Source: Blasia pusilla (taxonomy: Eukaryota). Taken from it: a DNA stretch of 64,000 nucleotides. The notes below the pieces were generated by a model. The model saw only the letters and a program-made list of their open reading frames with translations. It was not told the origin of the DNA and made no database searches. The DNA is taken from NCBI GenBank assembly GCA_050084515.1, contig CM114271.1, forward strand, positions 12,214,001-12,278,000, read 5' to 3'. Within the stretch, counting starts at the first letter, position 1; each line of letters starts with the position of its first letter. The translations under genes and the position numbers were made by a program. Shown one piece after another: positions 10,200 through 61,120 of this stretch.

Positions 10200-12983
10200 A
10201 AGAAGATTGAAAAATGGAAACATCCTCATAATGAGTGCATATAATTAATGCATTTTAGTGAATGTAGTCTATTGCCTCGTTCTCAATAATGAAACAAGAA
10301 GATGACCATCATGCATATTCTCATTTACTAGGTTGAATACACCAAATGCTCATGAGGAATCGATGGTGATTAGGGTTACTCTAGTGATGAATATGTGTTA
10401 CTAATTCATAAGAACAAGCATATTCTAGAAAACACGATGAACTTGTATGAGATCCATGGCAATAGGTTGAAGATTTATGGTTGCATATAGGTGGAAGTTG
10501 GCAAATGTCATATGCCTACTACTCTTGAACTTTAATCTCAGATGTTGCGGAAGCGTACGTTGTGTTGGTCACACTCACTCTGCTAATTTGCACTCCAACA
10601 CACTTTCATTAGTCTTCATTTGAGCCAACCATCCTTTGACTTCCGGAGTTCTCAACTTGGGCCATGCATCAAGCCCAATAGGTCCTAACTCCTCACTTCC
10701 AAACATGGGCAAGTCTTCCTAAACTTGGGACAGACTTTCTAGATAATGGAGACACCCAAAATGACGCTTGCACGCTTGGCATTCCCAACTGTCCAATGAA
10801 CCTTGCATGAGTCCCTAACCAAGACCGAAGAATTGAGTCACGGATTGGAATCCAAGGATGACCTCCGAAATTCACTCCCTTAGACTAGGCTTGGTATTTA
10901 CATCCTAATGCCGACCTCCCAATCTATTTCATGCCCTTGGCCCTTAATTAAAATTTGATCCATGAAGGTTTCCTCCCGATTTATGGACATTAACACATGA
11001 AACGCTGAACCTTGCTCACATATCACATGTCTTGTCTCCTTCAAGAGACTTCTCTGATGTGTATCCATCTTAATGTGAGCCTAATCGAGAGCCTACTAGA
11101 GTCTTGAGGTTTTGCATTTGGGCACATTTGGTTATGAGGGTTGCAACAATAGAAGTACCCAACAAGCATGACTAGCTTCCCATTAAATATGTTTCCGATA
11201 TTTAAAGGAGAAACCTTATTGATTCTCATTTGCTATAACTTGCAACAACTAAGTTCTTAGCATTGAGCATTCATCAATTACAATGACCTCGCAGACCTTA
11301 AGTTTAACATAAGAATTGGAAGTGGCATGTAGAGATGGTATATCAATGCAAATTAGTATTTCAAATGCTGAATGGACCAAAAAATTTCCTCAAGATGCAA
11401 GCAAATGGCTGCAATCCCATTTATGGCAATTAGCATGGGGTCCATCTTGTTAACCTTCCAAAAGTTATACATGAAGGATGCAAAGAAAGAATTATTGCAT
11501 CTAAGTGCCCTTTTGAGGATAAGTAGATATGTCTTTAAGTCTTTAAATTCCATGAATAACCCTAGCTACTATGAATTGAGCATATTGAAATCAAGGTAAG
11601 AGACTACATTGTCTTGAGGCTGGTCACGTGAAGTTTGAGATGGAAATGGTTCATAAATAAGCGCACTTCTATCCAAATCTAATTCAAGTTGTAGTATAGC
11701 AGTAGTTATGGCTATGATCTCAGCTTCGTGGACTTGGATCCAAAAATTTCTTCGGGCATGAGACATAAGTAAGGCAGGAATATCGTGCATATTGTGTACA
11801 ATCTCTTGCTAAATAGATTCTTTAACTACATCCAACAAGGGGATAGAGATGACACAATAGCTTCTTCTAAGAAAAACGCAATGTGGCTAAGCATCACTAA
11901 ATAGAAAAATCCATTGGTGCAAGGGATGGAATTAAAAAAATCTAACAAGAAGATCTATTTAGATGTAAGATTCCCTAAGTTGTCTAAACCTACAACCTTC
12001 AAGTTCAACTTTCATGGATGAGATTTAAGTAACTTATACTCTAACCAATATTGTGTGAATTTCAAGTCCCCTAATATAGAAGGTCTATTTAGATTGAGTG
12101 TAGTGGCCCAGTGGGGTGAATGTAAGGTAAGGAAGCATTGTTGTAGAGGCAAGTTCTTCTTTTTGGGAGGATTGCAATCCACATAGTGGATTGCTTGGGA
12201 TCTACATATTATAGGAATCTATAATGAGGTCAAAGAATCCTCTATTGAGCATAAAAATCTATTCAAAACAACAATGATATTAGCCTAAGCTTAATATCAT
12301 CTAATCCCCCCAAGCTATGGTACTTTGTTGACTGTATATCAATGTTTAATGACCTAGTTGGTTCATACTTCAAAGAATACTTCAGTAAATAGAAAGACCA
12401 ATCCATATTTGTTGCTGTTTGGATATTCATATGTGCACCCTATAGAAGTTTCACAAGAGGATGGTAAGGATTACAATGCGGTGCTCTATAGCAGACTTGT
12501 AGTGATTCCACTTGATTGTGCAAGGATCTATGAATGGCTGAGTTTCAAGGTTTATGGTAGCAGGAGACCCAAGGTGGCAATAAGGCTTTTTGTAGCCTTT
12601 CCTAATTATGCAAATACCTTCCTTGCACCTATAATATGTTTGTACAAGATTAAATATAGAAGGGTTTGGGACGGGTTTAATGTAGCGTTGGAAGAAGTCA
12701 TAGTTGATCCTTGGCTTGTACTTAATGGAATATAGTGCAAATTTCAGATGTAATACCTTCAACATCAACATCATGTCTGCAGAATATGATATGGGAGTGC
12801 AAGCTACCTCTGCCTTGCAACTTATATCAAACTAAATAATCTTTTCCTTCACCAAGTATGCAACGGCGTGAGAAAATAAAGAATGTAAGATGTGACAAAA
12901 GGGAATAGGAATGGAAATGAGATTGTTTCAATAGCTAAGTGTAGATCAACTGAGGTTCTTGATATGTCTACCAATAAGCTTTC
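10200..12983 (-). pseudogene. Highly decayed Pif1-family helicase / Helitron-like remnant; may continue at ~22676-23400 beyond the retroelement insertion
   Basis: Minus-strand translations give LIAINGIAA (motif Ia-like), EVIVIDECSML (Walker B, ~11258-11290) and FNGKLVMLVGYF (motif III-like) in the correct order. ETISFPFLFPF near 12900 resembles a Helitron Rep-region motif. Many stops; boundaries uncertain. Confidence 0.55.
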
Positions 12984-13512
12984 TTTCACGTCTTTTAGGA
13001 TAGATCGATGAGATCTAGTAGAACGCCTTCGTGAGTAGTAGAGGACATGCTCAATAGGTCGAGGATGACCTACTAAGGCCCCAGGAACCCAAGGGGAAAC
13101 CTGAGAGAGCAGGTTTTCCCTTGGTTTCGGCTCATTTGGAGCCATATTGAGAAATTTACTATTTTAGGTAAGTACCATTTTCAGTATATGATTAAATTTA
13201 TATTTTTGGTAAATGGCCCTTGACCTCCTACATCAGGTCAAGAGCCAAGGAGGTGACTTGGGAGGATAGGTTACCATGGAGGGAGCTTGGGAGAGGGGAG
13301 GGGTATACCTCAAGGAGAGAGAGCTTGAGAGCTCATTCTCTCTTTGTTGAACCTCTTGGCATGAGGCCGTGGAGGTATGGTCTTGCTTGCCTTGTGTGTG
13401 TAACCCAAGCCTCTCATTAGCAGAGTGGGTTTGGTTTGACATTGAGAGAGATATGTGAGAGTGCACACATGTGAGAACTATGGTGTTGTGAGAGAGATTG
13501 GATCTTATTTTA
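12984..13512 (+). repeat. Terminal repeat A1 of copy 1
   Basis: Homologous to 60608-61120 and 47550-48062 (reverse complement). Contains a TATA-like gggtatacc at ~13301. Confidence 0.88.
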
Positions 13513-13527
13513 CAAAGAGAGAATGAG
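13512..13527 (+). promoter_or_regulatory. Putative self-priming primer-binding site
   Basis: acaaagagagaatgag, directly after A1, is the exact reverse complement of 13332-13347 (ctcattctctctttgt), ~28 nt downstream of the TATA-like box. No TGG-type tRNA PBS is present. Confidence 0.65.
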
Positions 13528-15090
13528 TGAGTGAGAGAGCTTCATGGGAGAGCTCGCTGGTTGCTTGATGTTTGGTGCAGGTTGGGGGTCCATGTTCCCC
13601 GCTTCATGGCTCATGGGCGTGCTCACCGGAGCAAGAGCCATGCAAGTTTGCTGTTTTGCTTTGCTGATTTTTTGTACGGAAGAGTGGCACGCGGAAGCGC
13701 TGCCCAATTTTTGATAGGAATTGAGTATGGGGGCGGATTGCTCCATGCCAGTGCTCTCTAGACCACCATGTAGCTTGTTGATTTGTGTTCTCATAGGTTT
13801 TATATTTTCGTTGGGAGAAATTAGCGCCGAAGTGCTGCCAAATTTTGTGTAGGAGAAAGAGACATTGGGCTTTACGACAATCTCGGTCTATTTTTACTGG
13901 AATGTCCGATTCAAAATATTTTTTAACGTAGTTGTAGATCGTCAAGTTGTGCACGTTGTACAATAAAAAGTGCGCAATTTGGAGTTGCGAGCAAAATATT
14001 ACAGTCAATCTTGCAAAACTGCCATTGCTAGGCAATTTTTAGGGTTAAATTGTTCAAACCCTAAAGTAGCCGCCGAGCCGGCGGCGGCCGTCGCCGTCAT
14101 AGTCATCATCAACGGTCCGTCGTCACCATCAATGGTCCACCATCCACTGTCCATTGTCGGCCGCCGCCGCCGCCTAGCATTGCTCAGAGCCGCGTTCGGT
14201 TGTTGTCCACCCTTTGGTTGCCATTGCCGCCATAACGGAGTGAAGGGTCTTCCACGACCACCGTTGATTCTCTAACTTGTGCCGCCACCACGTACTTTGG
14301 TTTGGCCACCACCATCATCGCATCTTTGTCATCAACAAGTGATGGCAGGTAACCTCGGGTTATGGCGTTTGAGTTTTCATTTCATGTTGCTATGTTGTGA
14401 TTGGTAGCGGCTCCACGACGATCAAGTACTATGCCGTGCCGCCCATAGCCACAACGTGCCGTCGATTGCCGCGCCGTGTCGCTCATGGCCGCACCACACA
14501 CTCTTGATCGCGGAGCCACTCCTTCACTAAGGAGCAGAGCATGTCAATTTCTGATTGAGGAGGGTATGCCGCCCAATGCCATATCCCATTCCCGAGTGCC
14601 GTGCCGTTTGTAGCCGTTTCGTGCCGCCAGTGCCGCATTAGACCGCTGGACCTCCACTGCACATCGAGGAGGTTTGAGCAGCATCAATACAAGAGGAGTA
14701 CGACTTGTTGATTGGAGGAGTTGGCTCCACGACCAAGTTGGGGTTGAGATTTGCAGTTGCCGAGGAGCGACATCAACATTATTGTCAGGTTACCCATTTT
14801 GGTCTCTTACTCTGCACGTGTGAGGGATTTTCGGGTATTGAGAAGTTATTTGGGATATTGGGTTTCATGTTGATGCTAGGAGCATCAATGATGTATGGGT
14901 TTAGGGGACATAGATCTATATGGGATGTCCAGAGTTGAGGATGGTTTGTCGATGAGATGATAGAACAGTTGATTTGCCGCACCACGCTACTTGTTGCCGA
15001 ACATGACACATCTCGGTGAGAGAGTGTAGATTGAGTGCTGCATGTTTAGTTCGAGTGATTGAGGGATTACTTGCAAGATTGAGAGTGATC

Positions 15091-16400
15091 ATGTGAGAGG
15101 GGCACGAGGCCATCACGACGTCCTTTCAGGATTTTGAGAGGCGAGCTAGTGGACCTGAGAGTAGCCCTGGAAGGTTTACCCGGGGTGGTGCGAGGTTTTG
15201 AGGGTCTCCACATGAGAGACCACCTCGATCTCCTTCAATATCATCTTCAGACGAGGGGGAGCATGTAGAGGAGTGTGTTAGTGATCCACCGTACACATTG
15301 AGTAGTCCTACCAGTTGGGCATACGAGATGGACGACCGGGGTAGCGGACCGCGTAGGTTTTCGAGTTCATAGGCACTATAGAGCTACATGACTTCATTTT
15401 AGAGTTTGAGAGTTGGTGTGACTCACAATGGGCTAGGAACTCTAGAGAGTTCAACCCGTTTACAACATGGAACAATGTGTTCTAGTATTTAGAGGGGGCG
15501 CCCATGGACGAATACCGTGAGTTCTCCCACAGATATGCCTAGGAGATTGAGGCATGGCGACTCTACTATGACCCACACTATGTGTCATGGAAGGAGCCGT
15601 TCCCAAATGAGGAGGAGGAGTCAAGAGAGGCTACTTCCTCTTCCACTAGTGATGTTTTAGGAGGGTTCACTCGCACTGGAGCTATTGCACCGTCTAGTCG
15701 GGTTTGTTCCAGGTTCAACCTCGTGGTTGAGTTCTTTGCTGAGTTGAGGGCGAGCTACCAGAGGGTACGGACGGAGAAGTTACAAAGCATCCATGACTTC
15801 TAGAGGCGCCCGGGTAAGAGTTTGCATGAGGCTTACACTCGCTTGCGCCGGTTGATCAACGTCACTCGAGGGGCGATAGAGGCTCAGGCTATCCAATCAA
15901 GGTACGCGATGTTCGACCGGATCCTACGGATACGGGTGCGGGAGGGGATGCTTCTTATGAACACCTCCCCTACGTTGAGAGATTGTTTTAGGACCGCCAA
16001 GAATATTGAGCGCAACATGGCGGAGGAGAGCGTAGCCACCATGGGTTCTAGGCGAGAGCAGTCACGATTGTCTGCACCACCTATACAACAACGTGGACTC
16101 CTAGATAGGTCCACTATGGCAGCACGAGCTCAGGGAGGATATCAAGAGGCCGTGCCACACAGACCTGCGCCTTCATATGCAGCTTGGCAGCAACCCCCTA
16201 CGATTACTTGTTGGCTAAGTGGTGGAGCCCATCATCAACGTGATTGGACTCGTTAGGGTCATAGATGTCTGCCTCAGCATGGCGGAGGAAATGATGTTGC
16301 AAAAGGAGGTTATTAGTGTGACTATTGTCAGAGATATGGTCACACACGCGCCAGGTGTTTCAGTTTACACCATGAGTTACGTCCAGATCGAGGGCCCGAG
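15091..16400 (+). pseudogene. gag region with two CCHC zinc knuckles, copy 1
   Basis: Capsid-like GxSLHEAYTRLRRLI, then CWLSGGAHHQRDW (copy 2 ends ...HQRDC) and CDYCQRYGHTRARC. Start approximate; stops and frameshifts present. Confidence 0.75.
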
Positions 16401-17289
16401 AGGGCACGACAGCGAGTAGCCGGTCCGGATGGGCCTAGAGATAGTGCACCTGATGGTCCTGTTGGGGGACGAGGAGCTGGAGTTGCCCAACAGGGTGGTG
16501 GAGCTACCCATGGAGGAGGTGGAGTCCCACCACCTAGACGCGTCGAGGGAGATGCCAGGCATGAGGCTGGGATGGCTGCTCAGATACAATAGCTACAAGA
16601 GCAGATTGCTGCTATGGCATTGAGATTACTCGATGCCGGATCCGTGGTATCGACATCATATGGAGCAGCCAGAAATATGGAGGATCCTGGTTGGATGTGT
16701 GCGATCACCCAAATGGAGGCCGCCATAGTTGTGATGGATGGAGCAGCCTTGGATCCACAGCGAGGGGAAGCGAGAAAACAGACCAGGCTTCCTAAGTCTT
16801 TCACGTTGTCCGAGGCAATGAGGACCCCATCGATGGGTCCTGATCAGAGTTCCTGGAGAGTTGGTGATGTTGTTGGTGTGTAGGCACGGAGGGCGATGGG
16901 AGAAGCAAGTGCGACAACTCCTATTGCTGATGCTCAAGCATGTGTCGAGCACGTTGTTGGGGGCGGCCACTGTTCTGTACCGCGCCCCTTTATTTTCTGC
17001 TTCCGATGTTATGACGTTGGGAGGTACGCCCGCCGAGGTTTTTTGGCTGGCCGCTATGCTATGTGAGCATGGAGTTGGAGTTCCTGTATCACAATTAGAA
17101 GTGATTGCAGAGGCGGTGATGGACCTGCCCTATGAACGGACACTCGGGCCGTCCACGTCAAATTCATGGCAGGCTGCGGCTGCTAGGATGGCTGAGATGC
17201 CCGCTAGACCGGCGACAGAGCATGCCATGGATTCTCCAAGTGTTGTATTGCTGGATAACTGGGGAGAGGTCTTCTAGTTGGTGAGTCCC

Positions 17290-17660
17290 GGAGGTAGAGC
17301 TTTTAGTCCGCAACGCGTCTTGTTGGATTCAAGAGCGCTACCCCTGATGTTCGGAAAGCATCAGTGAAAGGATTGGGCTTGACAAGAGCCGATGTGGAGC
17401 ATTTTCCATTCCGGATACATACATCCTTGGGTGGAGCGAGTACCACATAGTATATCACCCGACAAGAGGTGGTGGTGAGGATTCGCTCGGAACATCCTAC
17501 AGATGAGTCCGTGGTGCGAGCCAAGGCGATAGTGATTGATGCAGAGTCCTACGACGTCTTGGTTAGTGGAGAAGTGTTATACCTGATGGGGTTTTCCTTG
17601 GATTGCTGGGAGGAGTCAGCATCCTACAGACCAAGATGGTAGTCAGGTGATGGGCGCCTT
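17290..17660 (+). pseudogene. Retropepsin aspartic protease, copy 1
   Basis: RVLLDSRA at ~17314-17337 (copy 2 keeps RVLLDSGAQPLMLG), with downstream YDVLVSG (DxLLG-like motif). Confidence 0.8.
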
Positions 17661-18029
17661 AGCTCATTACCCGTTTGATTCACAGGTGTAGTGATCGAGC
17701 GACGGCGAGGAGAGATGGCGACCTTAGCAACATTTAGCAGTGCGATGACTTGGCCTAGTGATTTGATTAAGGGACATGTCCATGCAGAGGATACTCCCAT
17801 TCCTGAAATTTCTATGGGGAGGAGTGTCATGGTAGCTGCATCAATGTGTGGAGGAGAGGTGCCACTTTGAGGCTTGATTGAGGAGCTTCAACGCTTAGCC
17901 ACTCAGTATCTGCAGACCGCGTGTAGCGAGACGTTTGCACCAGAGTGTGACGGGTGAGAGGAACCTTAGGTAGGCAGGAGTGCTACTTTGACCCTTTTGA
18001 ACACCACCTCAATTGTATGGTGCATCCCA

Positions 18030-19000
18030 GAGGAGGGTATTTGGATGTTGGATCTCTTTGGAGGGATCGGCAATGGGTTAGTTGCTATTTTGCACGCTGG
18101 AGTGCGCGTGCAGGAGAACGTGTATGTGGAGATTGATGATGTTGCAAGGCGCGCTTCACTTCACCATGTGGCGCTGTTATGCCTCCGTTTTCCCGACTTG
18201 TTGTCTGCGTGCGCCATTCAGGGTTACCAGAGTTCCCTACCGAGGGACATTTCATTGTTGGGGGGCCAAGACTTGGAGCGGGTAGGGACCATAGACTTGG
18301 TCATTGCTCGTTGGCTGTGTCCAGGCCAATCAAGAGCTGGACGAGGTAGCGGGTTAGCTGACACTTGGTCCAAGTTATTTTGGGAGATGATGCGGATCTT
18401 GCAACATTTATAGAAGCATCAGCCTCGTTCTCCAGCATACATTTTGGAGAATGTGTCGATTTTGGGCGATTCGAGGTCGTGCGTGGTGACGAGTGCACAT
18501 CAGGTGCGCACATGGATCGGCTCGACAGTGTTGTTAGATGCGGTGAGTTTAGGTTCTACAACACACCGCCCGCGTCTTTGGTGGACCAATTTGGTACCAC
18601 ACGAAGTGTTGCGGAGGGCTTATGCGAGAGTGGAGCGTCCCTCCTATTTGTTGGTGGATTCTATATTGGATCCATGCCATCGATCACAAGCGGTGAGGCA
18701 CGATGATCGACCGCCGTTGACTATAGTCAATAGGATTGGCATGCCACGAGCAACCTTTCCCACATTGGTGAGGTTTCCCGCTTCTTATGCATTCAAGGAG
18801 GCCCGACCTGCCTTGGTTTGGGATGACCAGGTACAGAGGTTGGTGGAACCCAACGCCGATGAGCAAGAGCGAGCAATGGGATTCCCCACAAGAGTGACGG
18901 CAGTACTGTCACTATCGGAGGCATCAAAACGTCAACTCTTGGGTCACGCGATGGACTTGAACTGCTTAACATGGATTTTCAGCTTTGGAGTAGCTAAGCA
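18030..19000 (+). pseudogene. C5-cytosine DNA methyltransferase domain, DNMT3-like, within pol, copy 1
   Basis: Motifs in canonical order: I LDLFGGIG, II YVEID, III RDI, IV VIARWLCPGQSRAG (copy 2 ISGWPC*), VI YILENV, VIII HRPRLWWTN, IX-X ERAMGFP...RQLLGHAMD. One reading frame 17988-19022 broken by a single TAG at 18411. Confidence 0.92.
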
Positions 19001-19295
19001 ACGTCGTTTGAGGATGCGATAGTTCACAAAAATTTTGTTGGTGGGCCCCATGCCTACCAAGACGGTCAAGGCAGTGGCTGGGGGCGAGACCTAAAGACAT
19101 CGACATACCAGGGATGATCGAAAGAGACACCCTTGGACTTCTTGGGATGTTTTGCAGGTACACCAAGAGATGATAGCCATAGCATCGAGCGTGGTTCCGG
19201 GTACTACATGTGGAGATGAGAGTTCTATTGTCCGAGACGGGGTTGCACCATAGCAACCACCAAAATCCGCGCCGGAGAGTCCTAGTATAGTCACG

Positions 19296-20260
19296 ATGGA
19301 GACTTGGGAGCCACATATGGGCCCTAAGTTGACAGGAGGAGAGCGGCGTCAGATACACCATTTCCTTAGGAGTTATAGGAGATGTTTTGCTTTTAGTATG
19401 CATGATTTGGGTATGCTGAAGGGTCTAGGGATCCGAATTGAGTTGTCGAGTGACACGCCGATCTTCCCACGACCCTATAGGTACAGTGACATGGAGAGGG
19501 GTCTAATTCAAAGAAGGAGCCAAGACTTGGTTGGAGCAGGACTAGTGGAGATTTGCATGGAGAGTATGCATCTGCCCCTATCATGCCCGCCAAGAAGGAT
19601 GTGCATGGCAATTAGACGGATAGGCGGATGTGTGGAGATTACCGCCCTATCAATCGACATACAAAGTTTGATAGGTATACCATGCCCACCCCTGAGGAGA
19701 TCTTTGATATGATTGGGCATGCAAAGATCTTCAGTTCATTGGATTTGCGAGCCGGATACCATCAACTGCCTATAAGATTGGAGGACATACCAAAGACGGC
19801 ATTTTGGGGCATCAATCCTCACGGGAAGGATTGTTTGTACCGGTGGAGGTTCCTACCATTCAAGTTAAATAATGCTCCAGATGAGTGACAAAGGATCATG
19901 GATAGGATCTTGGCAAGTGTGGATTTTTCTAGGTGTTATATTGATAACATCGTAGTCTTTAGCACCACGGTTGAGGAGCATGAGCGACATCTAGAGGAGG
20001 TGTTTCGACGATTGCAGTTATATGGGCTGAAGCTATATCTAGGCAAGTGCAAGTTCTTCTACGGGTAGATTGAGTACTTGGGTCATACGATATACCTAGG
20101 GGGCCTTGGTGAGCAATAGACAAAGGTAGAGGCTATTTCATGTATTCCACGTGCTACAGATATGAGTCGAGTTCGTGCATTCATGGGATTGGCAAACTTC
20201 TATCAACGGTATGTGAAGGGTTTCAGTTCAATTGCGAAGCCGCTAACCTTGATAACCAAG
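19296..20260 (+). pseudogene. Ty3/gypsy reverse transcriptase, copy 1
   Basis: RMCGDYRPIN, IFSSLDLRAGYHQL, KTAF, PFKLNNAP, YIDNI (19937; YIDD variant), KCKF, YLGH, FMGLANFY. Confidence 0.95.
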
Positions 20261-20329
20261 ATGGATCAGGAGTGGCACTAGGGGGATGAGCAAGAGAGAA
20301 AATTTCAGATGCTCAAGGATAGATTGACG

Positions 20330-20740
20330 TCCGCGCCCATATTGAGGAGACCGATCAAGGGGCGTCTTTTCCGGTTGTATACCGATTGGAGCATGTTGGG
20401 GCTTGGAGTCGTGCTCAGCGAGCATGACGATGATGAGAATTTGTGGTGGCTTACGCTAGTCGCTTGAACAACGCTGCATAGGCAAAGTATAGCTTGTATG
20501 AGGGTGAGTGCTTGGCTGCAATGTGGGTTGTCGCACATTTTAGATGTTCTCTATTTGGAAATCCCTTTACCATCATTACTGATCATCAGCCACTAAAGTG
20601 GTTGATGGAGTCCGACAAGCTTACAAGGAAGCTTGCAAGGTGGGCTCTTTTGTTGCAGGATTATGACTTCCAGGTGGTGCTGCATAGACCTGGGACACTC
20701 AACCAAGATGCAGATGGTTTGAGCCGTAATCGATACCCGA
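20330..20740 (+). pseudogene. Ty3/gypsy RNase H, copy 1
   Basis: LYTDWSMLGLG, VVAYASR, YEGECLA, IITDHQPLKWL, LARWALLLQDYDF, NQDADGLSR. Confidence 0.93.
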
Positions 20741-21099
20741 GTCAGCAAGATGCGACTAGAGCTCGTTGGCATGGTGAGAGTGATGAGGAGTTGGTGCTAG
20801 GATGGCATGCGTCAGCCTATTTGGGCTTGTTGGCCATGGAGAGCCAGATTGCTGAGACTTTGATGGCGAGGTCTAATGGAGAGTCCGTAGATCCAAAGGC
20901 CCATGAGAAGATGACAGGTGGCCGAGACATTCACGACGATGGAGTGGTCTTGGAGTACTTGCGTACTGGCAGCGTCGCGAGCACAATGGGTGCTAGAGAG
21001 CGGGATCGGATCCTACAGCAAGCCAGACGGTTTTGGTGGGAGGGCACACATGTGTTGCGAGTGTGGGAGGATGGTAGAGTGCGTGTAGTGCCTCATCTT

Positions 21100-22160
21100 T
21101 TGTAGAGAGCATGTTTGGTGCATCATGCCTACGAGGAGTTGGGTCATTTTGGAGTGAAGGGGACGTACAACTTGCGCCAGATTCAGTATTGGTGGCGAGG
21201 CATGCAGACTGACGTTCAACAGTTTGTTTCCAGATGCATGGTGTGTGATCAAGTGTGAGCATCGTTCAATGCTCCCACTCCATAGTTGCATCCACTTCCG
21301 TTCATGGGCTTAGGTTATAGATGGAGTTTAGATTTTGCAGCACCTTTACCTTTGACGAGGCGCCATAGTCATTATGTGTTGGTGATGGTCGAGCACTTCT
21401 CGAAATGGATAGAGTTGGTTGCATTGTCTGACAAAGCGAGTGAGAGAGTAGCATATGCCTCCTAAGATCGAGTGTTGAGACATTACGGCGCACCAACTAA
21501 GGTGTTGACAGACCAGGGTATAGAGTTTTGTTGGGAGTTTCAGGCCTTGTGTGATCAGACACTGATTGACCACCACACTACTTCGCGAGATCATCCTGAG
21601 GCGGATGGACTAGCAGAGCGGGTTGTGTAGACGGTGAAGAGAGGACTACGCAAGTATGACTTTCAGAGAGTTCACCTAGGAGATTGGGACCTTTAGTTGC
21701 CGTGGTTGGCGATGGGATACACATTCAGCAGGCAGGCATCCTTAACGTCTTTCTCACCGTACTTGTTGCTTTATGGCTGAGAGCCAAATTTACGTGCGGC
21801 CATTCCTCGAGATGTTGATGAGGTTTTGAACCTTGATGACCCAGATGTTTGGATGCGAGCATGTTCTCAGAGGGCTGAGCTATTTTGGAGAGTGATGCCC
21901 ATGGCGTTTAAGAACTTGGCGATTGCGCAATATCGGGATACGTTGAGGTATGTGACTATTTGGGGAGGTGGTTATCGACCTCCTATCCCAAGGTTTCATC
22001 AGGGAGATTATGTCTACTTGCAGCAGAAGGCGCTCACAACATTGGATGTGACTACAGGCCGTACCATCTTGAGAGTGTGTGAGGTTTTGCCATCCACTGT
22101 TCTCTTATTGGAGGGACGCGATGGTATGGTTTGGAAGGACCATGTGCCTAACTGTACGTC
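21100..22160 (+). pseudogene. DDE integrase (HHCC zinc-binding region plus rve core), copy 1
   Basis: LGHFG...WWRGM...CMVC, WSLDF, VLTDQGIEF, HPEADGLAERVV*TVK, FSPYLLLYG. Confidence 0.92.
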
Positions 22161-22227
22161 ATGTCATCTTCCGAACATTGATGGTACATTTGATCCAAGC
22201 TTAGCAATAGTTCTTTTAGGCTTGCGG

Positions 22228-22368
22228 TGTATGTTGTGTGGTTTCGTCCGTGGCGCAGCCACTATGCTAGTCTGTGATGGGTGTTCGAGAGGATGGCATA
22301 TGGCATGTTTGACGCCACCTCTCACTAGGGTTCCTCAGGGACGATGGATGTGTCCCAAATGTACATAG
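22228..22368 (+). pseudogene. C-terminal PHD finger (C4HC3) of the polyprotein, copy 1
   Basis: CMLCGFVRGAATMLVCDGCSRGWHMACLTPPLTRVPQGRWMCPKCT* has all eight zinc ligands and the conserved W. Confidence 0.92.
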
Positions 22369-22547
22369 AGTAGGTAGTTCTACATTCCGACTTGTGTCTG
22401 TGATATGGATGACAAGAAGGCGACTAACGACGGGACCACATGAGCACCTGACCTGCTTGCTCTTAGCGTCCGAGAGATGTATGTCATAGTAGGTAGGGAT
22501 AGATGGCTATTTGGAGTTAGAGGGACCTAATCACCAACTAGGGGTCA

Positions 22548-22675
22548 ATTGGAGATATTTTGGTACTTCTTGTCTCATTGTTTGGATGCCATGAGTTAGC
22601 ATGGGATCGTGCGTGTTTGTGTTTGTGTTCGGTGACAACGATGTATGTTGTGTAACGATGTGTATGCGCACGACA
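22548..22675 (+). repeat. Terminal repeat B of copy 1 (128 bp)
   Basis: Matches the reverse complements of 47422-47549 and 48065-48192. Preceded by actagggg; ends in CA. Confidence 0.9.
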
Positions 22676-24250
22676 TTTTGTTAAAAGAGGAATTTGTAGT
22701 TAAATATAATTTTTAGTTCCACTATCAAATATATCACGAGATGATCTCCTTTGTATTAGAAAACAATATGCAATATCTTGCATAATGTTGAGATTGGGAT
22801 GATAAAAATCGTGACTTATATTATGATTCACTTTTCTTTTCTCCTAGGATGAATTAATTATCCTTTGGACTGATGACGCAGGTAAGACTACTGGTCCGGA
22901 AGAAGGATTTGGCAACTTGAGAAGGGTCTTATAATATCTATCAAATGGGTTAATCTGGAGATTTACATGAAGCAGGTGTTATAATAGGTGGTATAGAATA
23001 CTTGACGTAAGGCACTTTGCTGCTAAGGTTGAAAGTAATACAAGGAGAGTCTAAAATAGAGGTGGCTGAGAAAAATCCTTTATGGAAACCATTGGAAAAT
23101 TTCTCCACTCATATTAAGGAATTTGTTACGGAAAAAAGTTGGAAGTGGAAAGGATTCACATGATCTAGTATAGCTCTAATGTAGGATGGAGTCATATATA
23201 CAATGCGGCTCATTATCAATGCAAAAATCACAAACATGGAATCTTCCTAGTTCGGGTACCATAAAATCTCTTAGGAATCCATTGCACAAGGCATAAAGTT
23301 GGTTGGATATAGATTCAAATACACACATTCGTGAAAGTTGATTCCAATACATGACATAGCCATAGTAAACGAAACATTGCATATTCTTTATTATATTATA
23401 GTAGAATCCTTGCTATCTTCTCATAAATGAAATTGATGTTGACCAATTTGAACATTGCGGCCTACAACCTACCTTCCTAGAGAGGGCAAATCTAGTTTGC
23501 ATCTTGAGTTGGAAATACTTCAACCTAGATTTGGTGAAGAGAAGCGTTATTCTCTAATGTCGCTTATTTGATTTTGTTTCTAAGGTTAAGCGAAGGGGAT
23601 GCCCTATGAGTCATGCAAGAGAGCAATACTCACTAGGATACTATATGGAAAGTATATATATGATTACCTATATTACGCAATTGACCAAATTTTTCATGTA
23701 TAAAGCAAACTACATAACTTTTCTTCACTTACTGTACTTTCCTACAGTCGATTGTAATTTCAAGAGCTCAAAGTGTCATAATATCATGATTTTAGATTAT
23801 TTGGGAAGATATGGATGAGGTCGAAAAAAAATTCTAAAATATCATTTAGGATTTTTCTAATCCTTAGTCACCAAAATTATTGATCGCCTCCAAAGTCTTT
23901 TCAACTTTAAGACTTAACATGAATCTTCCACCTTCTAAACTAATTCTCCATCTTAAATCTCTGTTCCCAAAACTAAATTTGGATGCACTCTTTCCTCATT
24001 TCTCTCCTTGTATATCAAGGATTTTAATAAAATGTCTCATATTATTCTAATATCATGTAGAAAAATTCCTAAATTAACAAGCGTAGCTCATGTCATATGA
24101 ATCTCACATATACACACCAACATAGAGAATTAAATTCTACAATGAGAGAATGATTGAGGATTAGTCCCTTCTAAATATTATTACAAGAAAATTAAACCCT
24201 AACCATAATCTTTAATTATACTAAATATCGTTAAATTATCCTTATTAAAG

Positions 24251-31904: not shown

Positions 31905-32132
31905 ACACTAGTGATAAGGAGTGTTATCACTACATGTAGTTATATCAAGAACGCATAGTTATTATTATGACTGGTCGAAGTACTAATGATAGTGTGTGTT
32001 ATCACTACATGTAGTTGTATCAAGAACGCATACTTATTTTCATGGCCGGTTGAAGTACTAGTCATAATGTGTGTTATCACTACATGTAGTTGTATCAAGA
32101 ACACATAGTTATTTTTATGACTGGTTGAAGTT
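31905..32132. repeat. ~75-bp subterminal tandem repeat, 3 copies
   Basis: gtgttatcactacatgtagtt(a/g)tatcaagaac recurs at ~31921, ~31996 and ~32071. Confidence 0.85.
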
Positions 32133-42760: not shown

Positions 42761-43687
42761 GACAACATGCAATAGGATCTCAAGTCCATACTTGAATGAA
42801 CATGGCAGGTCATAATCTGTGTGGTTCCCTGGGTGTAGATCTAAACATACTAACCGTAACGTCCAATATCCAAATGGAACAAGCCAATCCCTTTTATGAA
42901 GTTAAATACACTATTAGGAAGAAACCCAAGCGTCAGAGGCCAAGTATTACGGCCTTTGACGTTCTTCCTTCTCCTTGTCCCTCCACCATTTATCTACTTT
43001 TGTAAGATGGGACTAAAGGAGAGAAGTTTACAATACGCACAAAGTAGATAAGTAGACTAGTGACCTAAGTCCTCGAAAACCACGGCTAGCCAGCTGCAAA
43101 ACGCATTCGGAACTAAAACTTATTAAGGCGGTTGCACGCCTCAGCATTGTAATTGTAGTGTGATAACCTCACTCGAATCAGCCGAATGCTCTATAGTTCC
43201 CAATAACATTGCTCGCCTCTACGGGGACTACTTAAGAATGAGTACTTTAGATCCAGTTCCAAAAATGCAAACTAATTGAACTAGAGTTCCAATTAGCAAT
43301 TAGAACTCTAGTTCCAAAAGAACAAGTTGGCCTTGGTCGGTCGCGAGTACCTAAGAATCGGAACTATAGATCTAGTTAAAAAAATGATAACTGAATCCAA
43401 TTCCCTAAACCATTTTCGAAACTCTACATCTAGTTCAAGAAATGAGAATCAGTGTCAATCGGAAGTCTAGTTGCAAACCCTAAACCCTAAACACTGACAT
43501 GCAAAGCAGTTCTGGAAATGATAGAACAACCAAAATACCTTCACGAAGGACACTCAAGAATCAAGCTCGGGATGACATCTCCCACCTTGCAATAAAAGAT
43601 ATACATCCAATTGCATCTGAATTATGGATCTAGGTTTAGTTTGATAGCTCTAAATCCAAAAATGAACGGATACCTAAACCAAGGCTT

Positions 43688-46135
43688 TCAGAACTCGAGT
43701 TCCCAAATCAAATCGCTGGCCTCTTTGCGTGCTACTTCATAATGGGAACTATAGATCCAATTCTCAAAATGACAAGGAAGATCAATGGGAACTCAAGTTC
43801 CAATTCTTGACACAAAAATTGAGCCCGAACAAGGGCGTTCGGAGCTGTAGTTCCCAAAATTATCGTGCGCCTCCTTCTCGGCTTCCTCATCATCGAAATT
43901 ATAGATCTAGTTCTTGAAATGAGAAGGAGGATCAATCACAACTCAGGTTCCGGTTCCAAAGACGAGAAGTGAATCCAAACGGGGCATTTGGAAGTGTAGT
44001 TCCCAAAAATGATCGCCGGCCTCCATCTCGGTTTCCTCACCATCAAAACTCTGGATCCAATTCTCAAAATGAGGAGGAGGATCAATCAGAACTCATGTTC
44101 CAGTTCCACACACGAGAGTCCCTACCTAAACAAGGGCTTTTGGAACTAGAGTTCCCAAATCATATTGCGGACCTCCTTCCCCTTTAGATCACGATTGGAA
44201 CTCTAGACCCACTTCTCGAAATGAGAAGGAAGATCAATCGACACTCAAGTTCCCGTTCTAGAGATGAGAGTTGAGCCCAAATAGGAGCATTTGAAGCTAT
44301 GGCTCCCAAATGGGATCGTGGGCCTCTTTCCTGACTTCCTCACCATCTGAACTATAGATCCAATTCTTGAAAGAGAAGGAGGATGAATCCAAACTCAAGT
44401 TCCAATTCCAAAGATGACAACAGAGTCCAAATGGGAGCTTTCGGAATTTTAGTTCCTAAATGAGATTATGGGCCTCCTTCCTGGCTTCCTCACCATTGGA
44501 ACTATAGATCCAGTTCTTGAAATGAGAAGGAGGATCAATCAAAACATAGGTTCCAGTTCTAGAGACGAGAATCCCCCCCTAAACAAGGCCTTTTGGTACT
44601 ATAGTTCCTAAATCAAACCGCCGGCCTTTTTCTTTGCTACCTCACCATCAGAACTCTAGATCTAATTCTCGAAAGAAGAAAGAGGATCAAAAAGAACTCA
44701 AGGTCCGGTTCCAGAGATGAGAACTGAGTCTGAACGGGGGACATTTGCAACTATAACTCGTGGGCCTCCTTCCCAGCTTCCTCACCATCAAAACTCTAGA
44801 TCTAGTTCTTGAAATGAGAACAAGGATCAACGGGAACTCAGATTCCAGTTCCAGAGTTGACAACTGAGTTTGAACCGGAGCTTTCGGAACTGTAGTTCCC
44901 AAATGAGATCACGGGTCACCTTCCCGGCTTCCTCACCATCGGAACTCTAGATCCAATTCTAGAAATGATTAGGAGGATCAATCAGAACTCATGTTCTGGT
45001 TCCAAAGATGAGAGTCCTCCCCTAAACAAGGGCTTTTGGAACTGTAGTTCCCAAATTGGATCGTCGGCCTCTTTCCTTGCTACCTCACCATCAAAACTCT
45101 AGATCTAGTTCTCAAAATGAGAAGGGGGATCAAACAAAACTCAAGTTCAGGCTCCAGAGATGAGAACTAAGCTCAAACGAGAGCGTTCAAAGTTGTAGTT
45201 CTCGAATGGGATTGCGGGCCTCTTTAATTTCTCGGCTTCCTCACCATCCAAACAAGAGATTCAATTCTTGAAATAAGAAGGAGGATCAATCTGAACTCAG
45301 ATTCCGGTTCTAGAGAAAAGAGTCCCTCCCTAAAGTAGGGCTTTTGGAACTGTAGTTCCCCAAATCAAATCGACAGCCAGTTTCCTTGCCACCTCACCAT
45401 CGGAACTCTAGATCCAATTCTTGAAATGAGAAGGAGGAAAAATCGGAATTCAAGTTCCGATTCCGGAGACAAGCGTCCCCCCCTAAACGAGGGATTTCAA
45501 AATTGTAGTTCCCAAATCAAATCTCCGGCCTCTTTCCTTGCTATCTCACCATCAGAACTCTAGATCCAATTCTCAAGCTGAAAAGGAGGATCAAACGGAA
45601 TAGAGGTTGCAGTTCCAGAGATGAGAACTGAGCCCAAACGGGAGTGTTCAAAGCTATAGTTCTCAAATGGGATAGTGGGCCTCTTTCCCGGCTTCCTCAC
45701 CATTGGAACAAGAGATTCAATTCTTGAAATGAGAAGGAGGATCAATCTAAACTCAGGTTCTGTTTTTTGATAGAAGAACTGAGTGCGAATAGGAGCGTTC
45801 AAAGCCGTAGTCCCCGAATGGGATCGCGGGCTTCTTTCCCGGCTTTCTTACTATCGGAACAAGAGATTCAATTCTCAAAATGAGAAGGAGGATCAATCTG
45901 AACTCAAGTTCTTGTTCTAGAGATGAGAGTCCATCCCAAAACGAGGGCCTTTGGAATTGTAGTTCCCAAATAAGAAGGTGGGCCTCCTTCTTGGCATCCT
46001 CACCATCAGAAATCTAGATCGTGTTCTTGAAATGAGAAGGAGGATCAATCGAAACTCAGGTTCCAATTCCAAAGACGAGAACTGAGCCCGAACGGGGACA
46101 TTCGGAATTGTAGTTCCTAAGTGAGATCAAGGGCC
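43688..46135. repeat. ~151-bp tandem array, left part (~16 units)
   Basis: Anchor cctcaccatc recurs at 44780, 44931, 45083 and 45239. The core gaaatgagaaggaggatcaatc is conserved. Confidence 0.93.
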
Positions 46136-47421: not shown

Positions 47422-47549
47422 TGTCGTACGCATACACATCGCTACACAACATACATCGCTATCATCGAACACACACACAAACACGCACGATCCCATGCTA
47501 ACTCATGGCATCCAAACAACGAGACAAGAAGTACTTAAATATCTCCAAT
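47422..47549 (-). repeat. Repeat B2 (128 bp), element 3' terminus
   Basis: Direct repeat of 48065-48192. Confidence 0.92.
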
Positions 47550-48062
47550 AAAGTAAGATCCAATCTCTCTCTACACCATCTCACACCCTAGCTCTCAAAG
47601 GTGTGCACTCTCTCTCATGTCAAACCAAACCCATTGTCCTAATGAGAGGCTTTGGTTATACTCACAAGGCAAGGGACCACAACTCCACTGCCTCATGCCA
47701 AGAGGTTCAACAAAGACAGAATGAGCTCTAAAGCGCTCTCTCCTTAAGGTATATCCCTCCCCTCTTCCAAGCTCTCTCCATGGTAACCTATTCTCCCAAG
47801 TCACCTCCTTGGCTCTTGACCTGATGTAGGAGGTCAAGGGCCACTTACTAAAAATTTAAAGTCGATCATATACTCAAAATGGTACTTATCTAAAATAGTA
47901 AGTTCCTCAATATGGCTCCAAATGAGCCGAAACGAAGGGGAAACCTGCTCCATCAGGTTTCCCGAGGCCTCAACAGATCATCCTCAACCTACTAAGCTTG
48001 TCCTCCACTACTCACAAAGGCACTCTACTAGATCTCACAGATCTATCCTAAAAGACGTGATA
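47550..48062 (-). repeat. Repeat A2 (~513 bp)
   Basis: Direct repeat of 60608-61120, from aaagtaagatccaatctctctc to ctatcctaaaagacgtga. Confidence 0.92.
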
Positions 48063-48064
48063 TT

Positions 48065-48192
48065 TTTTGTGCGCATACACATCGCTACACAACATATATC
48101 GCTATTACCGAACACACACACAAACACGCACGATCTGATGCTAACTCATGGCATCCAAACAACGAGACAAGAAGTACTAAAATATCTCCAAT
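48065..48192 (-). repeat. Repeat B1 (128 bp)
   Basis: Direct repeat of 47422-47549. Preceded in element orientation by a G-run (ctaggggggtg). Confidence 0.92.
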
Positions 48193-48378
48193 CACCCCCC
48201 TAGCTCGTGGTTAGGTCCCTCTAACTCCATATAGCCCTCTATCCCTACCTACCACGACATACATCTCTAGGACCCTAAGAGCAGAAAGGCCGGGTGCTCA
48301 TGTGCCCCCATCGTTAGTCGCCTTCCTCTCATCCATGTCATAGAAAAAGTCGGAATCGAAAACTACCTAGAATCTCTT

Positions 48379-52122: not shown

Positions 52123-55100
52123 TATTGAAGATTGAGTTATAGTCAAGCTCATGAGACATCTGAACTGCTACATTTGGCACTCACAAGAAGTAGGGAAGCT
52201 TAATCTTGGTTAGTCGATAACCACGATTATCTTGACTAGGATTTGTTAATCACACTTAGGCTAACTCGAGACTAGGGTTAAGGATAGGGTTAGGATTGCT
52301 TGTATATATCCTATATAATTGAGAAGAGGACCAGCCTCCACTCATTCTCTCATTGCAAATTTTGTTCTCCATGGTGGTGTGTGTGTGTGATATGAGAACA
52401 GGAGCCTCAGTAGAAGAGGGTTATCAAGTGAAGTTTAACGTAAATAGTTGTTTCATTGAAACAATGGATAACCACACTACGATAGCAAAAGGAACTAGAT
52501 CTGGCAGAATGTTCAAATTAGATGTTTCTATGCCAAAAATTCAAACAACAATGTATGGTCAAACCGGCCAACAAGTCACAGATCTAAATGTGTGGCATAA
52601 AAGAATTGGACATATGAATCTTCAAAAATTACAGAGGCTTTCATCATCTAATATAGTAATAAGACTCCCTAAATTAGTGAGTCTTGCTATGTTAGAGGTA
52701 TGTCCTGCTTGCCAATTTGGAAAACAAGCTAGATTTCCTTTTCCAAAGCGAGATAGAAGAGCATCCAAGATATTGGAGTTGATCCACAATGATGTGTGGA
52801 CAACATCACAACAGAGCCTTAGTGGTTGCCAATACTTTGTTTCATTTATTGATGACTTCTCTAGGTATATATATAGGTATACTTTTTGAAAGCCAAGTCA
52901 GGAAATTCTCAGTGTTCCTCGAAGTCTTCACATGAAGTAAACCTGATTTTTCCTTCTTGAAAGTATTTGGCTGTATCTGTTATGCTCATGTTCCTTCTGA
53001 GAGACGACAAAAATTAGACCCCAAGTCTCAAAGATGTATCTTCATTGGCTATGCTGATGAAACTAAGGGGTATAAGTGCTACATTCCATCCTCTAGGCAG
53101 CTTATTATTAGTCGCGATGTTGTCTTTGATGAGCTAAAGTCATGGTATGCTCCATCTGAGCCTATTCCACCTCTAAACTTGTCTGTTGAGGAGGAGAATA
53201 TGACTCGAAACCAACAGACATTGTCTTCAACTTCCCCAAGTACTAGTGTAGGATTAGGAGAGGTCCTAGATTCATCGGTTCAATCTGTGAGTCCATGGAT
53301 GGGAAGAGTACATATTCAGTCTATTGACACTAGTTGGAGCTTCAGTCAAGTGTCAAACGCATCTATCTCTGAACAACAACTTTGTAGATCAAGTAGAGTT
53401 ATACATCCAGTTCATAGATTCATAAATTAAGGTTTCCTTGCGACATATTATGCATATATGATGACTACCCTTCAACAGCAAGAGCCGAGTTGTTTTGAAG
53501 AAGCTATGAGTAAATTCGAATGGATTGAAGCTATGGAGGAAGAGCTTGCTGCATTAAGACATCAACAAACATGGGAGCTGGTTGATATACCTTCCGGTAA
53601 GAAAGCTATTGGTTGCAAATGAGTTTACAAAATCAAGTGCAATCAAGATGGTACAATTAATAGATACAAAGCGAGATTGGTTGCTAAGGGCTATGCACAA
53701 CAATACGGTATCGATTATGAGGAAACATTTAGCCATGTTGCAAAGATGGTGACTACAAGAACATTGGTTGCAATTATAGTAAATAAGAAGTGGAGATTAC
53801 ATCACATGGACGTCAAGAATGCCTTCTTGAATGGAGATCTATGTGAGGAGATATTTATGACTCAACCACTTGGATACGAGCATCCCAAGTTTTCATTTCG
53901 CGTATGCAGGTTGAAGAAAGCTCTATACAGGCTCAAACAAGCTCCAAGAGCTTCGTATGGCAAGATTACATACGTCCTACAAGAGTTAGGTTTTAGGGTC
54001 TGTGATTCTGACTCCTTGTTATATGTCTTGAGAGGACAAGATCATACAGTTCTCATTGTGTTGTATGTTGATGATCTCTTGATTAGTGGGAGTATTGAAG
54101 AAATGGTACAACAAGTCAAGCTTAAGTTACAAGCAAAATTTGATATGAAGGACTTGAGAGAACTCAAGTACTTCCTTGGTATTGAGTTTATCAAGGTTGG
54201 AGAGAGCATGTGGTTACTACAACAACAATATGCTCTTCATATGCTTTCAAAATATGGTATGACGGCTTGTAAGCCAATCTCTATTCCGTTGGACTAGAGC
54301 GTGAAGCTAAGAGTGGATGAAGGAGAGCTGCTTGCAGATTCTGATATGTACAGACGCATGGTTGGAAGTTTGATCTATCTAACTATAACTAGACCAGATT
54401 TGAGCTATGTTGTTGGCCTAGTGAGCCAGTTTATGCAAGCACCTCGAAAACCTCACCTTGATGCTGTGAGGAGGATTATGTGGTATGTGAAATTCTCTAT
54501 TCAATTCGGGCCTCAATTTGAACCTTCTCCGAGTTTTCAATTACAGGGATTCACAAATGCTGATTGGGCAGTAAGAGTGTCTGATCGACACTCCACATTT
54601 GGTTATTCATTTACTTTGGGAAGCGCAGCTATAAGTTGGGCTTCACAGAAGCAACCTACAGTTGCTTTATCTTCAACAGAGGTTGAGTACAGAAGAGTAA
54701 CCAATGCAACATGTGAGGCGGTGTGGCTTCATTGATTACTTGATGAGATTGGTGTTAGTATCTTAGAACATAGTGTAATATATGCAGACAATATTAGTAG
54801 CATCAAGCTAATATTGCTAATAACCCTGTGTTTCATGCTCGTACAAAGCATGTTGAGATGCACTATCATTTTATTATAGAGAAAGTGCTTGTAGGAGAAA
54901 TTGATCTTGTGTATATAGGTACAGATCAAAAAATTGCTGACATCTTTACAAAGGCATTGTCTAGAGATAAGTTTGAGATGTTTAGAAAGGATTTAGGCGT
55001 TAGAGATATCGATATGAGCTTGAGAGGGAGTATTAAAGATCGAGTTACAGTTAAGCTCATGAGACACCTGAACTGCTACATTTGGCACTCACACAAAGTA

Positions 55101-55342
55101 GGGAAGCTTAATCTTGGTTAGTCAGTTAAGCATGATTATCTTAACTAGGGTTAGTTAATCACAGTTAGGCTAACTTGAGACTATGGTTAAGGATAGGGTT
55201 AGGGTTGCTTGTACATACCCTATATAATTGAGAAGAGGACCAGCCTCCACTCATTCTCTTATTGCAAATTTCTTTCTCCATGGTGGTGTGTGTGTGTGAG
55301 AGCCGTTTTCCACCAATTATGCTTGTTTAGCAGTTTTCCACA
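52123..55342 (+). mobile_element. Ty1/copia LTR retrotransposon, internally deleted, inserted in the DNMT domain of copy 2
   Basis: Exact 5-bp TSD cctac (52118-52122, 55343-55347). 5' LTR 52123-~52390 (truncated) and 3' LTR 55031-55342 ending CA. PPT tgagagggag at 55021-55030. Confidence 0.96.
52400..55020 (+). pseudogene. Copia pol remnant (GAG-pre-integrase, partial integrase, RT, RNase H)
   Basis: WHKRIGH, CPACQFGKQ, FIDDFSR, KLDPKS..CIFIGY, KARLVAKG, MDVKNAFLNG, LYVDDL, TRPDL, VALSSTEVEY, HARTKHVE, ADIFTKAL. gag, protease and the integrase core are deleted. Confidence 0.95.
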
Positions 55343-55347
55343 CCTAC

Positions 55348-60607: not shown

Positions 60608-61120
60608 AAAGTAAGATCCAATCTCTCTCTATACCATCTCACACCATAGCTCTCAAAGGTGTGCACTCTCTCTCATGTCAAACCAAACCCACTCTCCTAA
60701 TGAGAGGCCTGGGTTACACTTACAAGGCAAGGGACCATAGCTTCGCCGCCTCATGCCAAGAGGTTCAACAAAGAGAGACTGAGCTCTCAAACTCTCTCTC
60801 CTTGAGGTATACCCTTCCCTTCTCCCAAGCTCTCTCCATGGTAACCTATTCTCCCAAGTCACCTCCTTGGCTCTTGACCTGATGTAGGAGGTCAAGGGCC
60901 ACTTTCTAAAAATATAAAGTCGATCATATACTTAAAACGGTACTTACCTAAAATAATAAATTCCTCAATATGGCTCCAAATGAGCCGAAACAAAGGGAAA
61001 ACTTGCTCTCTCACGTTTCCTGGAGCCTCAGCACGTCATCCTTGACCTATTGATCATGTCCTCCACTACTCACAAAGGCGCTCTACTAGATCTCACCGAT
61101 CTATCCTAAAAGACGTGACA
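60608..61120 (-). repeat. Repeat A1 of copy 2, element 5' terminus
   Basis: Direct repeat of 47550-48062; homologous to 12984-13512. Confidence 0.92.

Follow-up and report, generated by a model that had tools for sequence, protein, structure and literature searches.

A candidate self-primer site and split direct repeats in a Ty3/gypsy-type retrotransposon of Blasia pusilla

To our knowledge, the priming of minus-strand DNA by a retrotransposon's own RNA has been demonstrated only in elements of fission yeast and is elsewhere predicted from sequence. Such self-priming frees a retroelement from dependence on host transfer RNA (tRNA). Here we analyse a stretch of 64,000 nucleotides (nt) of Blasia pusilla DNA (GenBank assembly GCA_050084515.1, contig CM114271.1, positions 12,214,001 to 12,278,000 of the forward strand), called the window below and numbered from its first letter, which holds two copies of an element whose predicted domains place it with the Ty3/gypsy-type retrotransposons: a DNA-methylase-like domain, reverse transcriptase (RT), RNase H, a DDE integrase and a PHD finger. 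Directly after the first repeat of the element (repeat A) lies a 16-nt site that is probably the primer-binding site (PBS) of a retrotransposon priming its own minus-strand DNA in the manner of Tf1.

Self-priming is established for Tf1 and proposed for Tj1 in the sections of PMC4600332 cited here, and the survey text of Neumann et al. 2019 (PMC6317226) predicts it for 12% of the plant elements surveyed, in the Tcn1 lineage of mosses and club-mosses and in TAR, a lineage of Ty1/copia. As far as these two texts describe them, Tf1, Tf2, Tj1 and the Tf1/sushi group are like the window element in having no tRNA site and a PBS after U5 that is complementary to the start of their own RNA (a start that is predicted here), and in the gene order RT, RNase H, DDE integrase (PMC4600332, PMC6317226). 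Tcn1 and TAR, in the account of the survey text, are likewise plant long terminal repeat (LTR) elements without a tRNA site and with an LTR-derived complement after the 5′ repeat (PMC6317226). That text contains no occurrence of the terms PHD finger or Marchantia; its per-element tables were outside our scope, and overlap with the window lineage is possible. Compared with Tf1/sushi, the window lineage has a PHD finger in place of the chromodomain, a DNA-methylase-like domain in pol, and integrated ends that differ from the predicted ends of the repeat made by reverse transcription. Its arms are 15-17 nt long, and the self-primer of Tf1 is 11 nt.

DNA-methyltransferase-bearing gypsy elements are known from Klebsormidium in the form of KnitGypsy-Dnmt3 of K. 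nitens (de Mendoza et al. 2018, PMC5890265), which, in the parts of that paper used here, is like the window lineage a gypsy element whose pol includes a C5 DNA methyltransferase. Those parts say nothing on priming or split repeats of KnitGypsy and hold no occurrence of PHD finger. A Klebsormidium protein with PF00145 (P0043) is itself a relative of the window pol at 39% identity, whereas the window relatives are found mainly in liverworts (Calypogeia, Riccia, Marchantia), and with this lineage the gypsy elements known to carry a DNA methyltransferase reach beyond a charophyte alga into land plants.

In the order of their repeats, A1-genes-B1-A2-B2, the closest systems are DIRS, Ngaro, PAT and TOC1. 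The layout of SymbioDIRS is given as A-coding-B-A-B in the cited part of PMC5890265, and TOC1 is described as a non-autonomous DIRS element in that of PMC9940879. DIRS, Ngaro and PAT encode a tyrosine recombinase, whereas the window lineage has a DDE integrase (rve and H2C2 domains) and 4-bp target-site duplications. DIRS-type elements are not known to make a target duplication. A DIRS-type identity was rejected on the DDE integrase and the 4-bp duplications, and Pfam gave no Phage_integrase match, as a tyrosine recombinase would, in the six open reading frames (ORFs) of at least 150 amino acids (aa) of a near-intact relative (locus L018) or in three full pol proteins.

The mode of priming is not new in principle, self-priming having already been predicted in other plant lineages; the new part is the combination of self-priming with permuted termini. 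The present work adds a third plant lineage with predicted self-priming, one with covarying arms, and its relatives occur in Marchantia, a laboratory model.

Complementary arms in the window copies and their relatives

The two copies of the element (copy 1 and copy 2) are about 84% alike in a self-comparison of the window, and their features are collected in Table 1. A preliminary description of this DNA, made from its letters, had reported that the 16 nt following the first repeat (A1) of copy 1 are the exact reverse complement of a site in the middle of that repeat, that the TATA-like gggtatacc precedes this upstream arm by about 28 nt, and that copy 2 retains the pairing at 14 of 15 positions. 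All of this was reproduced: the arms of copy 1 pair at 16 of 16 positions, the TATA begins at 13304, and copy 2 gives 14 of 15 over the earlier coordinates and 14 of 16 over the full arm length (60783-60768 against 60607-60592, minus strand). The end of U5 at 13511, also proposed there, agrees with a comparison of both A copies of copy 2, and the reported lack of a tRNA-type PBS stands, in that no site of the TGG type, matching a tRNA 3′ end, follows repeat A. In the upstream arm, the A1 and A2 repeats of copy 2 depart from copy 1 at bases that are not the same in the two (the equivalent in A2 reads CTCATTCTGTCTTTGT), so that by parsimony copy 2 had the arm form of copy 1 when it was inserted.

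The 16-nt complement is perfect and lies beyond chance. Among 2000 dinucleotide-preserving shuffles the maximum was a complement of 11 nt, and none reached 12; outside both copies, 1000 random 30-nt windows gave a maximum of 11 nt, and 1025 windows of the same geometry (30 nt against the preceding 515 nt) a maximum of 13 nt. A separate draw in which 2 of 300 random windows reached 16 nt included copy 2, whose inverted A copies match trivially. Folding of the RNA of 13332-13545 gives the end helix formed by the two arms in the minimum-energy structure and in the centroid structure alike (z -3.5).

Homologues of a 274-aa ORF of copy 2 are best represented in the three liverwort genera named above, with others in Klebsormidium and Tetraselmis; many of them carry a PHD finger and some PF00145. 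A 20-protein alignment led to 403 metagenome-contig stretches encoding relatives, the best 80 of which were kept as loci. In thirteen loci pol was flanked on either side by an A-like repeat, and BLAST added more upstream A copies, so that the 25 upstream A copies examined are copy 1, copy 2 and 23 locus entries, with L024 and L025 being one insertion. In 14 of the 25, the bases at the end of A have a complement of 10-17 nt at a site in the middle of A, and the arms belong to three sequence types. Type I is that of the window (CTCATTCTCTCTTTGT / ACAAAGAGAGAATGAG; 16 nt in copy 1, 11 nt in copy 2), type II reads AACATAGTTCTTTGAGT / ACTCAAAGAACTATGTT (17 nt in L046, 12 in L075, 10 in L013), and type III reads AGTTTTTCTAGAATT / AATTCTAGAAAAACT (15 nt in L018, L050 and L074, 13 in L014, L024, L025 and L077, 11 in L019, 10 in L020). 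Of the 17 relatives tested, 11 had a complement of at least 10 nt, a length that no more than 1 in 300 random windows from the respective locus attained.

The recurrence of the pairing in other subfamilies, on which the preliminary description had proposed that its reading be checked, is therefore observed, with different letters in types II and III, whose arms are not GA-rich. In all three types a TATA box (TATAAAA, TATAAAT or TATGAAG in the relatives) starts 24-32 nt before the upstream arm, and in none of the three does the downstream arm begin with TGG. The end helix also appears in the minimum-energy and centroid folds of L018 (z -5.4), L050 (z -4.0), L074 (z -2.4) and L046 (z -3.1). A MAFFT alignment of the R-U5-PBS region of 13 copies left the arms of the three types out of register, and the covariation rests on the three arm pairs together with the per-locus nulls. 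Certain repeat pairs of L013, L015, L022 and L080 were tried as A pairs and rejected, their complements being just 6-9 nt. Three further subfamilies show a G-run, a B repeat and then ...CACGACA-NN-TGTCA(C/T)G after pol (L001 8545-8680, L002 8125-8250, L006 3619-3790); their upstream A and primer site are outside the contigs.

The place of the downstream arm can be compared with the repeat structure of full copies, whose order is A1-PBS-genes-polypurine tract-B1-NN-A2-B2. A2 ends where the downstream arm begins in A1, and B2 begins at the base which in B1 follows the polypurine tract. The A2-B2 joint is the end of U5 joined to the start of U3, so the downstream arm marks the start of minus-strand DNA, whatever the primer. 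With the downstream arm at the U5 boundary and its complement anchored by a TATA box, self-priming is the best reading. The upstream arm is predicted, from the spacing of the TATA box in the three types, to be the 5′ end of the element RNA. The Tf1-like self-priming proposed in the preliminary description thereby gains comparative support, with a transcription start that is predicted from the TATA box.

Priming would then proceed as follows. Transcription would start about 28 nt past the TATA-like box, at or near 13332, and the first 16 or so nucleotides of the RNA would fold back over a stretch of R-U5 of about 180 nt to pair with 13512-13527. The RNA would next be cut behind the paired 5′ segment, a step carried out by RNase H in Tf1, and RT would extend the 3′ OH left by the cut, so that minus-strand DNA would begin with the last base of U5 at 13511.

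RNA reads and alternative origins of the pairing

Reads or contigs of four runs, two of them stranded RNA runs with the same species label, were mapped on 12786-14185. In the DNA run repeat A is extremely abundant (69,821 contigs), and the summed depth in A is 10-100 times that of the leader. Sense RNA covers A 150-350-fold in the two stranded runs, with antisense 10-100 times lower, and 104 and 198 reads in these runs span the junction at which B ends and A starts, which means that transcripts contain B1-NN-A2; the junction in these reads has the family form ...GACA-AT-TGTCACG. The family is thus transcribed, even though the two copies in the window are decayed. Within the list of best-supported differences that separate copy 1 from the four runs, beyond which there were 266 more, no majority difference lies inside either arm; base 13528, directly after the downstream arm, is A instead of T in most reads. 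RNA depth drops after about 13440, where two indels specific to copy 1 clip the reads, and for that reason we draw no polyadenylation site from the drop.

Several observations weigh against self-priming. At a listing threshold of one fifth of the local depth, no pile of read starts is listed at 13332, and the sole listed start with many molecules is at 14025 (7 molecules). Sense depth upstream of 13332 (154-359 over 13115-13302) is as high as downstream of it (143-286 over 13303-13443), as is expected if most reads come from B1-A2 copies, and coverage of the leader is only 5-30-fold. Since B1-A2 copies contribute reads over these bases, the RNA sequencing neither shows nor excludes a transcription start at 13332. 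The minimum-energy fold of copy 2 pairs its 5′ arm with another AGAGAG tract (z -1.9; 8 of 200 shuffles fold as well), and the type I arms are partly of low complexity (TC/GA). In 11 of the 25 upstream A copies the complement is only 6-8 nt (L005, L007, L010, L032, L043, L047, L054, L058, L062, L065, L069); these copies are all old, and in L062 and L069 the end of A was placed too far downstream. Finally, the element carries a PHD finger, as do P0011, P0035, P0043 and L018, in none of which Pfam finds a chromodomain.

We regard it as unlikely that the pairing is instead a conserved structure of the RNA or the complementary DNA (cDNA), serving packaging, translation control, strand transfer or the joining of cDNA ends, with minus-strand DNA started by another primer. 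The unusual termini do show that the lineage departs from the textbook cycle, and the RNA reads gave no observed start or primer. This reading, though, leaves aside that the downstream arm stands exactly at the U5 boundary, which the A2-B2 joint sets independently, that the upstream arm stands at the TATA-predicted start in three types, and that no other candidate primer site was seen after A.

Priming at 13512-13527 by a host tRNA, a tRNA half or some other host RNA, with the match to the repeat being incidental, appears quite improbable. The window holds no tRNA gene with which the site could be compared, and priming by half-tRNAs exists in plant copia lineages according to the survey text (PMC6317226), yet the site lacks a TGG start and differs among three subfamilies, in each following the mid-A arm of its own repeat; subfamily-specific sites are not expected of a tRNA match, since host tRNAs are conserved. 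The comparison with tRNAs suggested in the preliminary description, judged from these arms, favours self-priming. An origin by chance in GA/TC-rich sequence is the least credible of the alternatives and can be given hardly any weight: the arms do contain TCTCTCT/AGAGAGA and copy 2 can pair elsewhere, but none of the controls (shuffles, and random and same-geometry windows outside both copies) reached 16 nt, and unrelated arms that are not GA-rich occupy the same place in types II and III. Self-priming remains the reading that we prefer.

Split repeats and the integrated ends

Split direct repeats, with A2 between two copies of B (112-200 nt), are found in copy 2 and in 11 of the 13 loci with both A copies. 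A G-run polypurine tract stands directly before B1 in copy 2 and 10 loci, and before the single B of copy 1. All upstream A copies examined follow unrelated flanking sequence, and every A copy located downstream of pol comes after the end of a B. No B was found upstream of A1, where local alignments of the preceding 160 nt with B were no better than those of shuffles. Integrated copies open with TGTCA(T/C)G, where A begins, and close with ...GACA, where B stops; A1 of copy 1 opens TTTCACG where the family form is TGTCACG.

The duplication at the two integrated ends was read in 18 copies, 11 of full form and 7 with a single B. It is a perfect 4-bp duplication in 12 of the 18 (L005, L018, L020, L024, L032, L046, L058, L077, copy 2, L014, L075, L013), that of copy 2 being TTCT (47421-47418 matching 61124-61121). 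Three of the four bases match in L019, L069 and copy 1, L062 has no match, L007 is ambiguous, and L050 gives no reading, its right coordinate having been the B1-A2 junction. The form A-genes-B, with a single B and no A2, accounts for about 13 distinct insertions as well as copy 1, and a perfect 4-bp duplication was read in 3 of them. Such copies could have arisen by recombination of B1 with B2, or could be a direct but non-propagating product of integration.

Of the traits of Ty3/gypsy elements, a short duplication and TG...CA ends are present; two identical LTRs ending at the integrated ends are absent, the copies being A1-...-B1-NN-A2-B2 or A-...-B. At the inner B1-A2 junction, ...GACA-NN-TGTC..., two such ends abut, separated by a 2-nt spacer. 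Judged by the polypurine tract and the primer site, the repeat made by RT is B-NN-A, which is thus circularly permuted relative to the inserted ends. From copy to copy, the identities of A1 to A2 and of B1 to B2 fall together, as they should if the members of each pair were identical when inserted.

The A2-B2 joint varies exactly at its point of joining. After near-identical assemblies and one pair with a shared flank had been merged, the type III joints came from 15 distinct insertions, of which 8 have a blunt joint and 7 a deviating one. The deviations are losses of 1 or 2 nt with AT microhomology, twice independently (L023 and L032), and otherwise small changes; the joint of L062 includes the primer site and about 35 nt of leader. 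The type II joints show either differences of a few bases or a filler of 17 nt. To judge from these sequences, the variation looks like end joining of cDNA termini at each insertion.

We put forward, as a tentative account that we rate somewhat short of an even chance, a route of integration that would be new for integrase-bearing retroelements, combined with self-priming, in which the repeat made by RT, B-NN-A, is permuted relative to the ends used by the integrase, and a full copy is a two-LTR cDNA whose termini were joined and which was opened within one LTR. The RT-made repeat, B-NN-A, would be bounded by the polypurine tract and the self-primer site, and the DDE integrase would insert the ends TGTCA (start of A) and GACA (end of B), which lie inside that repeat. 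The two RT-made termini of the two-LTR cDNA would be joined, giving the A2-B2 joint, and the cDNA would be opened at the abutted-end site ...GACA-NN-TGTC... in the upstream LTR only. By itself this account does not say why the site in the downstream LTR is never used; the upstream LTR may be the first to become double-stranded. For foamy virus and HIV, integrase has been reported to cleave palindromic LTR-LTR junctions. We rejected the idea that a two-LTR circle opens at random at one or the other of its internal sites, since the other product that this would give, A-B-A-PBS-genes-B, was never seen among the copies examined.

In the literature we found no description of an element with a DDE integrase, A1...B1-A2-B2 termini and target duplications; the supplements of PMC6317226 and PMC5890265 were outside the scope of this search, and an earlier notice is possible. 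These copies show that reverse transcription and the integrase need not share the same element ends. Should the permuted-LTR account be true, the detection of such elements would change, because LTR finders expect identical terminal repeats, as would the dating of such insertions, and the lineage would offer a natural example of integrase action at abutted ends inside an element.

Domain content and surroundings of the window copies

Both window copies are decayed, with broken reading frames and fragmented ORFs, and the Pfam scans of the window were made on single ORFs. The order RT, RNase H, DDE integrase in pol is that of Ty3/gypsy (Metaviridae) elements, and the best solved relative of a full-length homologue is Ty3 Gag-Pol (7q5b, E 4e-97). 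The near-intact L018 has a DNA-methylase-like domain, RT, RNase H, an integrase (H2C2 and rve) and a PHD finger.

Table 1. Positions of the element features in the window, with the loci of relatives that share a joint or form
Feature	Positions	Strand	Remarks
Copy 1	12984-22675	+	Self-comparison; A-genes-B form
Left target-site duplication, copy 1, TTTC	12980-12983		Against TTTT at 22676-22679, 3/4
Repeat A1, copy 1 (part of U3, R, U5)	12984-13511	+	Aligned with both A copies of copy 2
TATA-like box TATACC, in gggtatacc 13301-13309	13304-13309	+	TATA starts 28 nt before 13332
Upstream arm, copy 1, ctcattctctctttgt	13332-13347	+	Predicted first 16 nt of element RNA; proposed self-primer
Downstream arm, copy 1, acaaagagagaatgag	13512-13527	+	Candidate PBS directly after U5; complement of 13332-13347 at 16/16
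Internal region, copy 1, decayed	13528-22539	+	Pfam on single ORFs
C5 DNA-methylase-like domain, weak	18243-18407	+	Pfam; upstream of RT
RT	19616-20065	+	Pfam
RNase H	20485-20664	+	Pfam
Integrase zinc domain	21106-21255	+	Pfam
Integrase core (rve)	21286-21627	+	Pfam
PHD finger, end of pol	22228-22362	+	Pfam
Decayed polypurine tract, copy 1, AGGGGTCA	22540-22547	+	Directly upstream of B
Repeat B, copy 1, end ...ACGACA	22548-22675	+	No A2 or B2 after it
Copy 2	61120-47422	-	Self-comparison; split by nested insertion at 52129-55347
Repeat A1, copy 2	60608-61120	-	
Upstream arm, copy 2, CTCAGTCTCTCTTTGT	60783-60768	-	One change; TATA at 60813-60806
PBS, copy 2 (candidate), ACAAAGAGAGAATGAT	60592-60607	-	Pairs with own upstream arm at 14/16
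Nested unrelated insertion, about 3.2 kb, in pol of copy 2	52129-55347		Break in copy 1/copy 2 alignment
Polypurine tract, copy 2, AGGGGGGTG	48193-48201	-	Directly upstream of B1
Repeat B1, copy 2	48065-48192	-	Followed by two spacer bases, 48064-48063
Repeat A2, copy 2	47550-48062	-	
Repeat B2, copy 2, end ...ACGACA	47422-47549	-	Joined directly to the end of A2
A2-B2 joints	47550/47549 (window)		Also noted in L018 (13509/13510), L023, L032, L063, L015/L059, L021/L022, L058, L062, L005/L038, L029, L039, L046
A-genes-B loci			L007, L009, L011, L014, L017, L034, L035-L037, L049, L051, L067, L075, L013, L069, L061

The DNA-methyltransferase-like domain lies between the protease region and RT, at 17970-19022 (+) and 55471-56172 (-) in the window and at 8732-11272 in L018. 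It is weak in the decayed window copies, where PF00145 matches the ORF 17970-18413 with E 1e-4 and 22.3 bits against a cut-off of 22, and clear in relatives (E 2e-9 in L018, 5e-8 in P0035 and 4e-8 in P0043); its homologues include Marchantia and Klebsormidium proteins with PF00145. The PHD finger stands at the C-terminal end of the integrase, the site of the chromodomain in chromoviruses, at 22228-22362 (+) in the window and at 11834-12988 in L018.

The insertion nested in copy 2 has direct repeats of about 270 bp (52123-52390 and 55031-55299, 92% alike) and is a small element flanked by LTRs in which no pol is obvious; positions 24104-24176 hold a fragment related to it. Copy 2 is flanked on both sides (43671-46121 and 61262-62766) by arrays, in the same orientation, of an approximately 150-bp tandem repeat, and its insertion site may have been a single satellite array or a place next to one. 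A 75-bp unit is present in three tandem copies, 85-91% alike, at 31907-32131.

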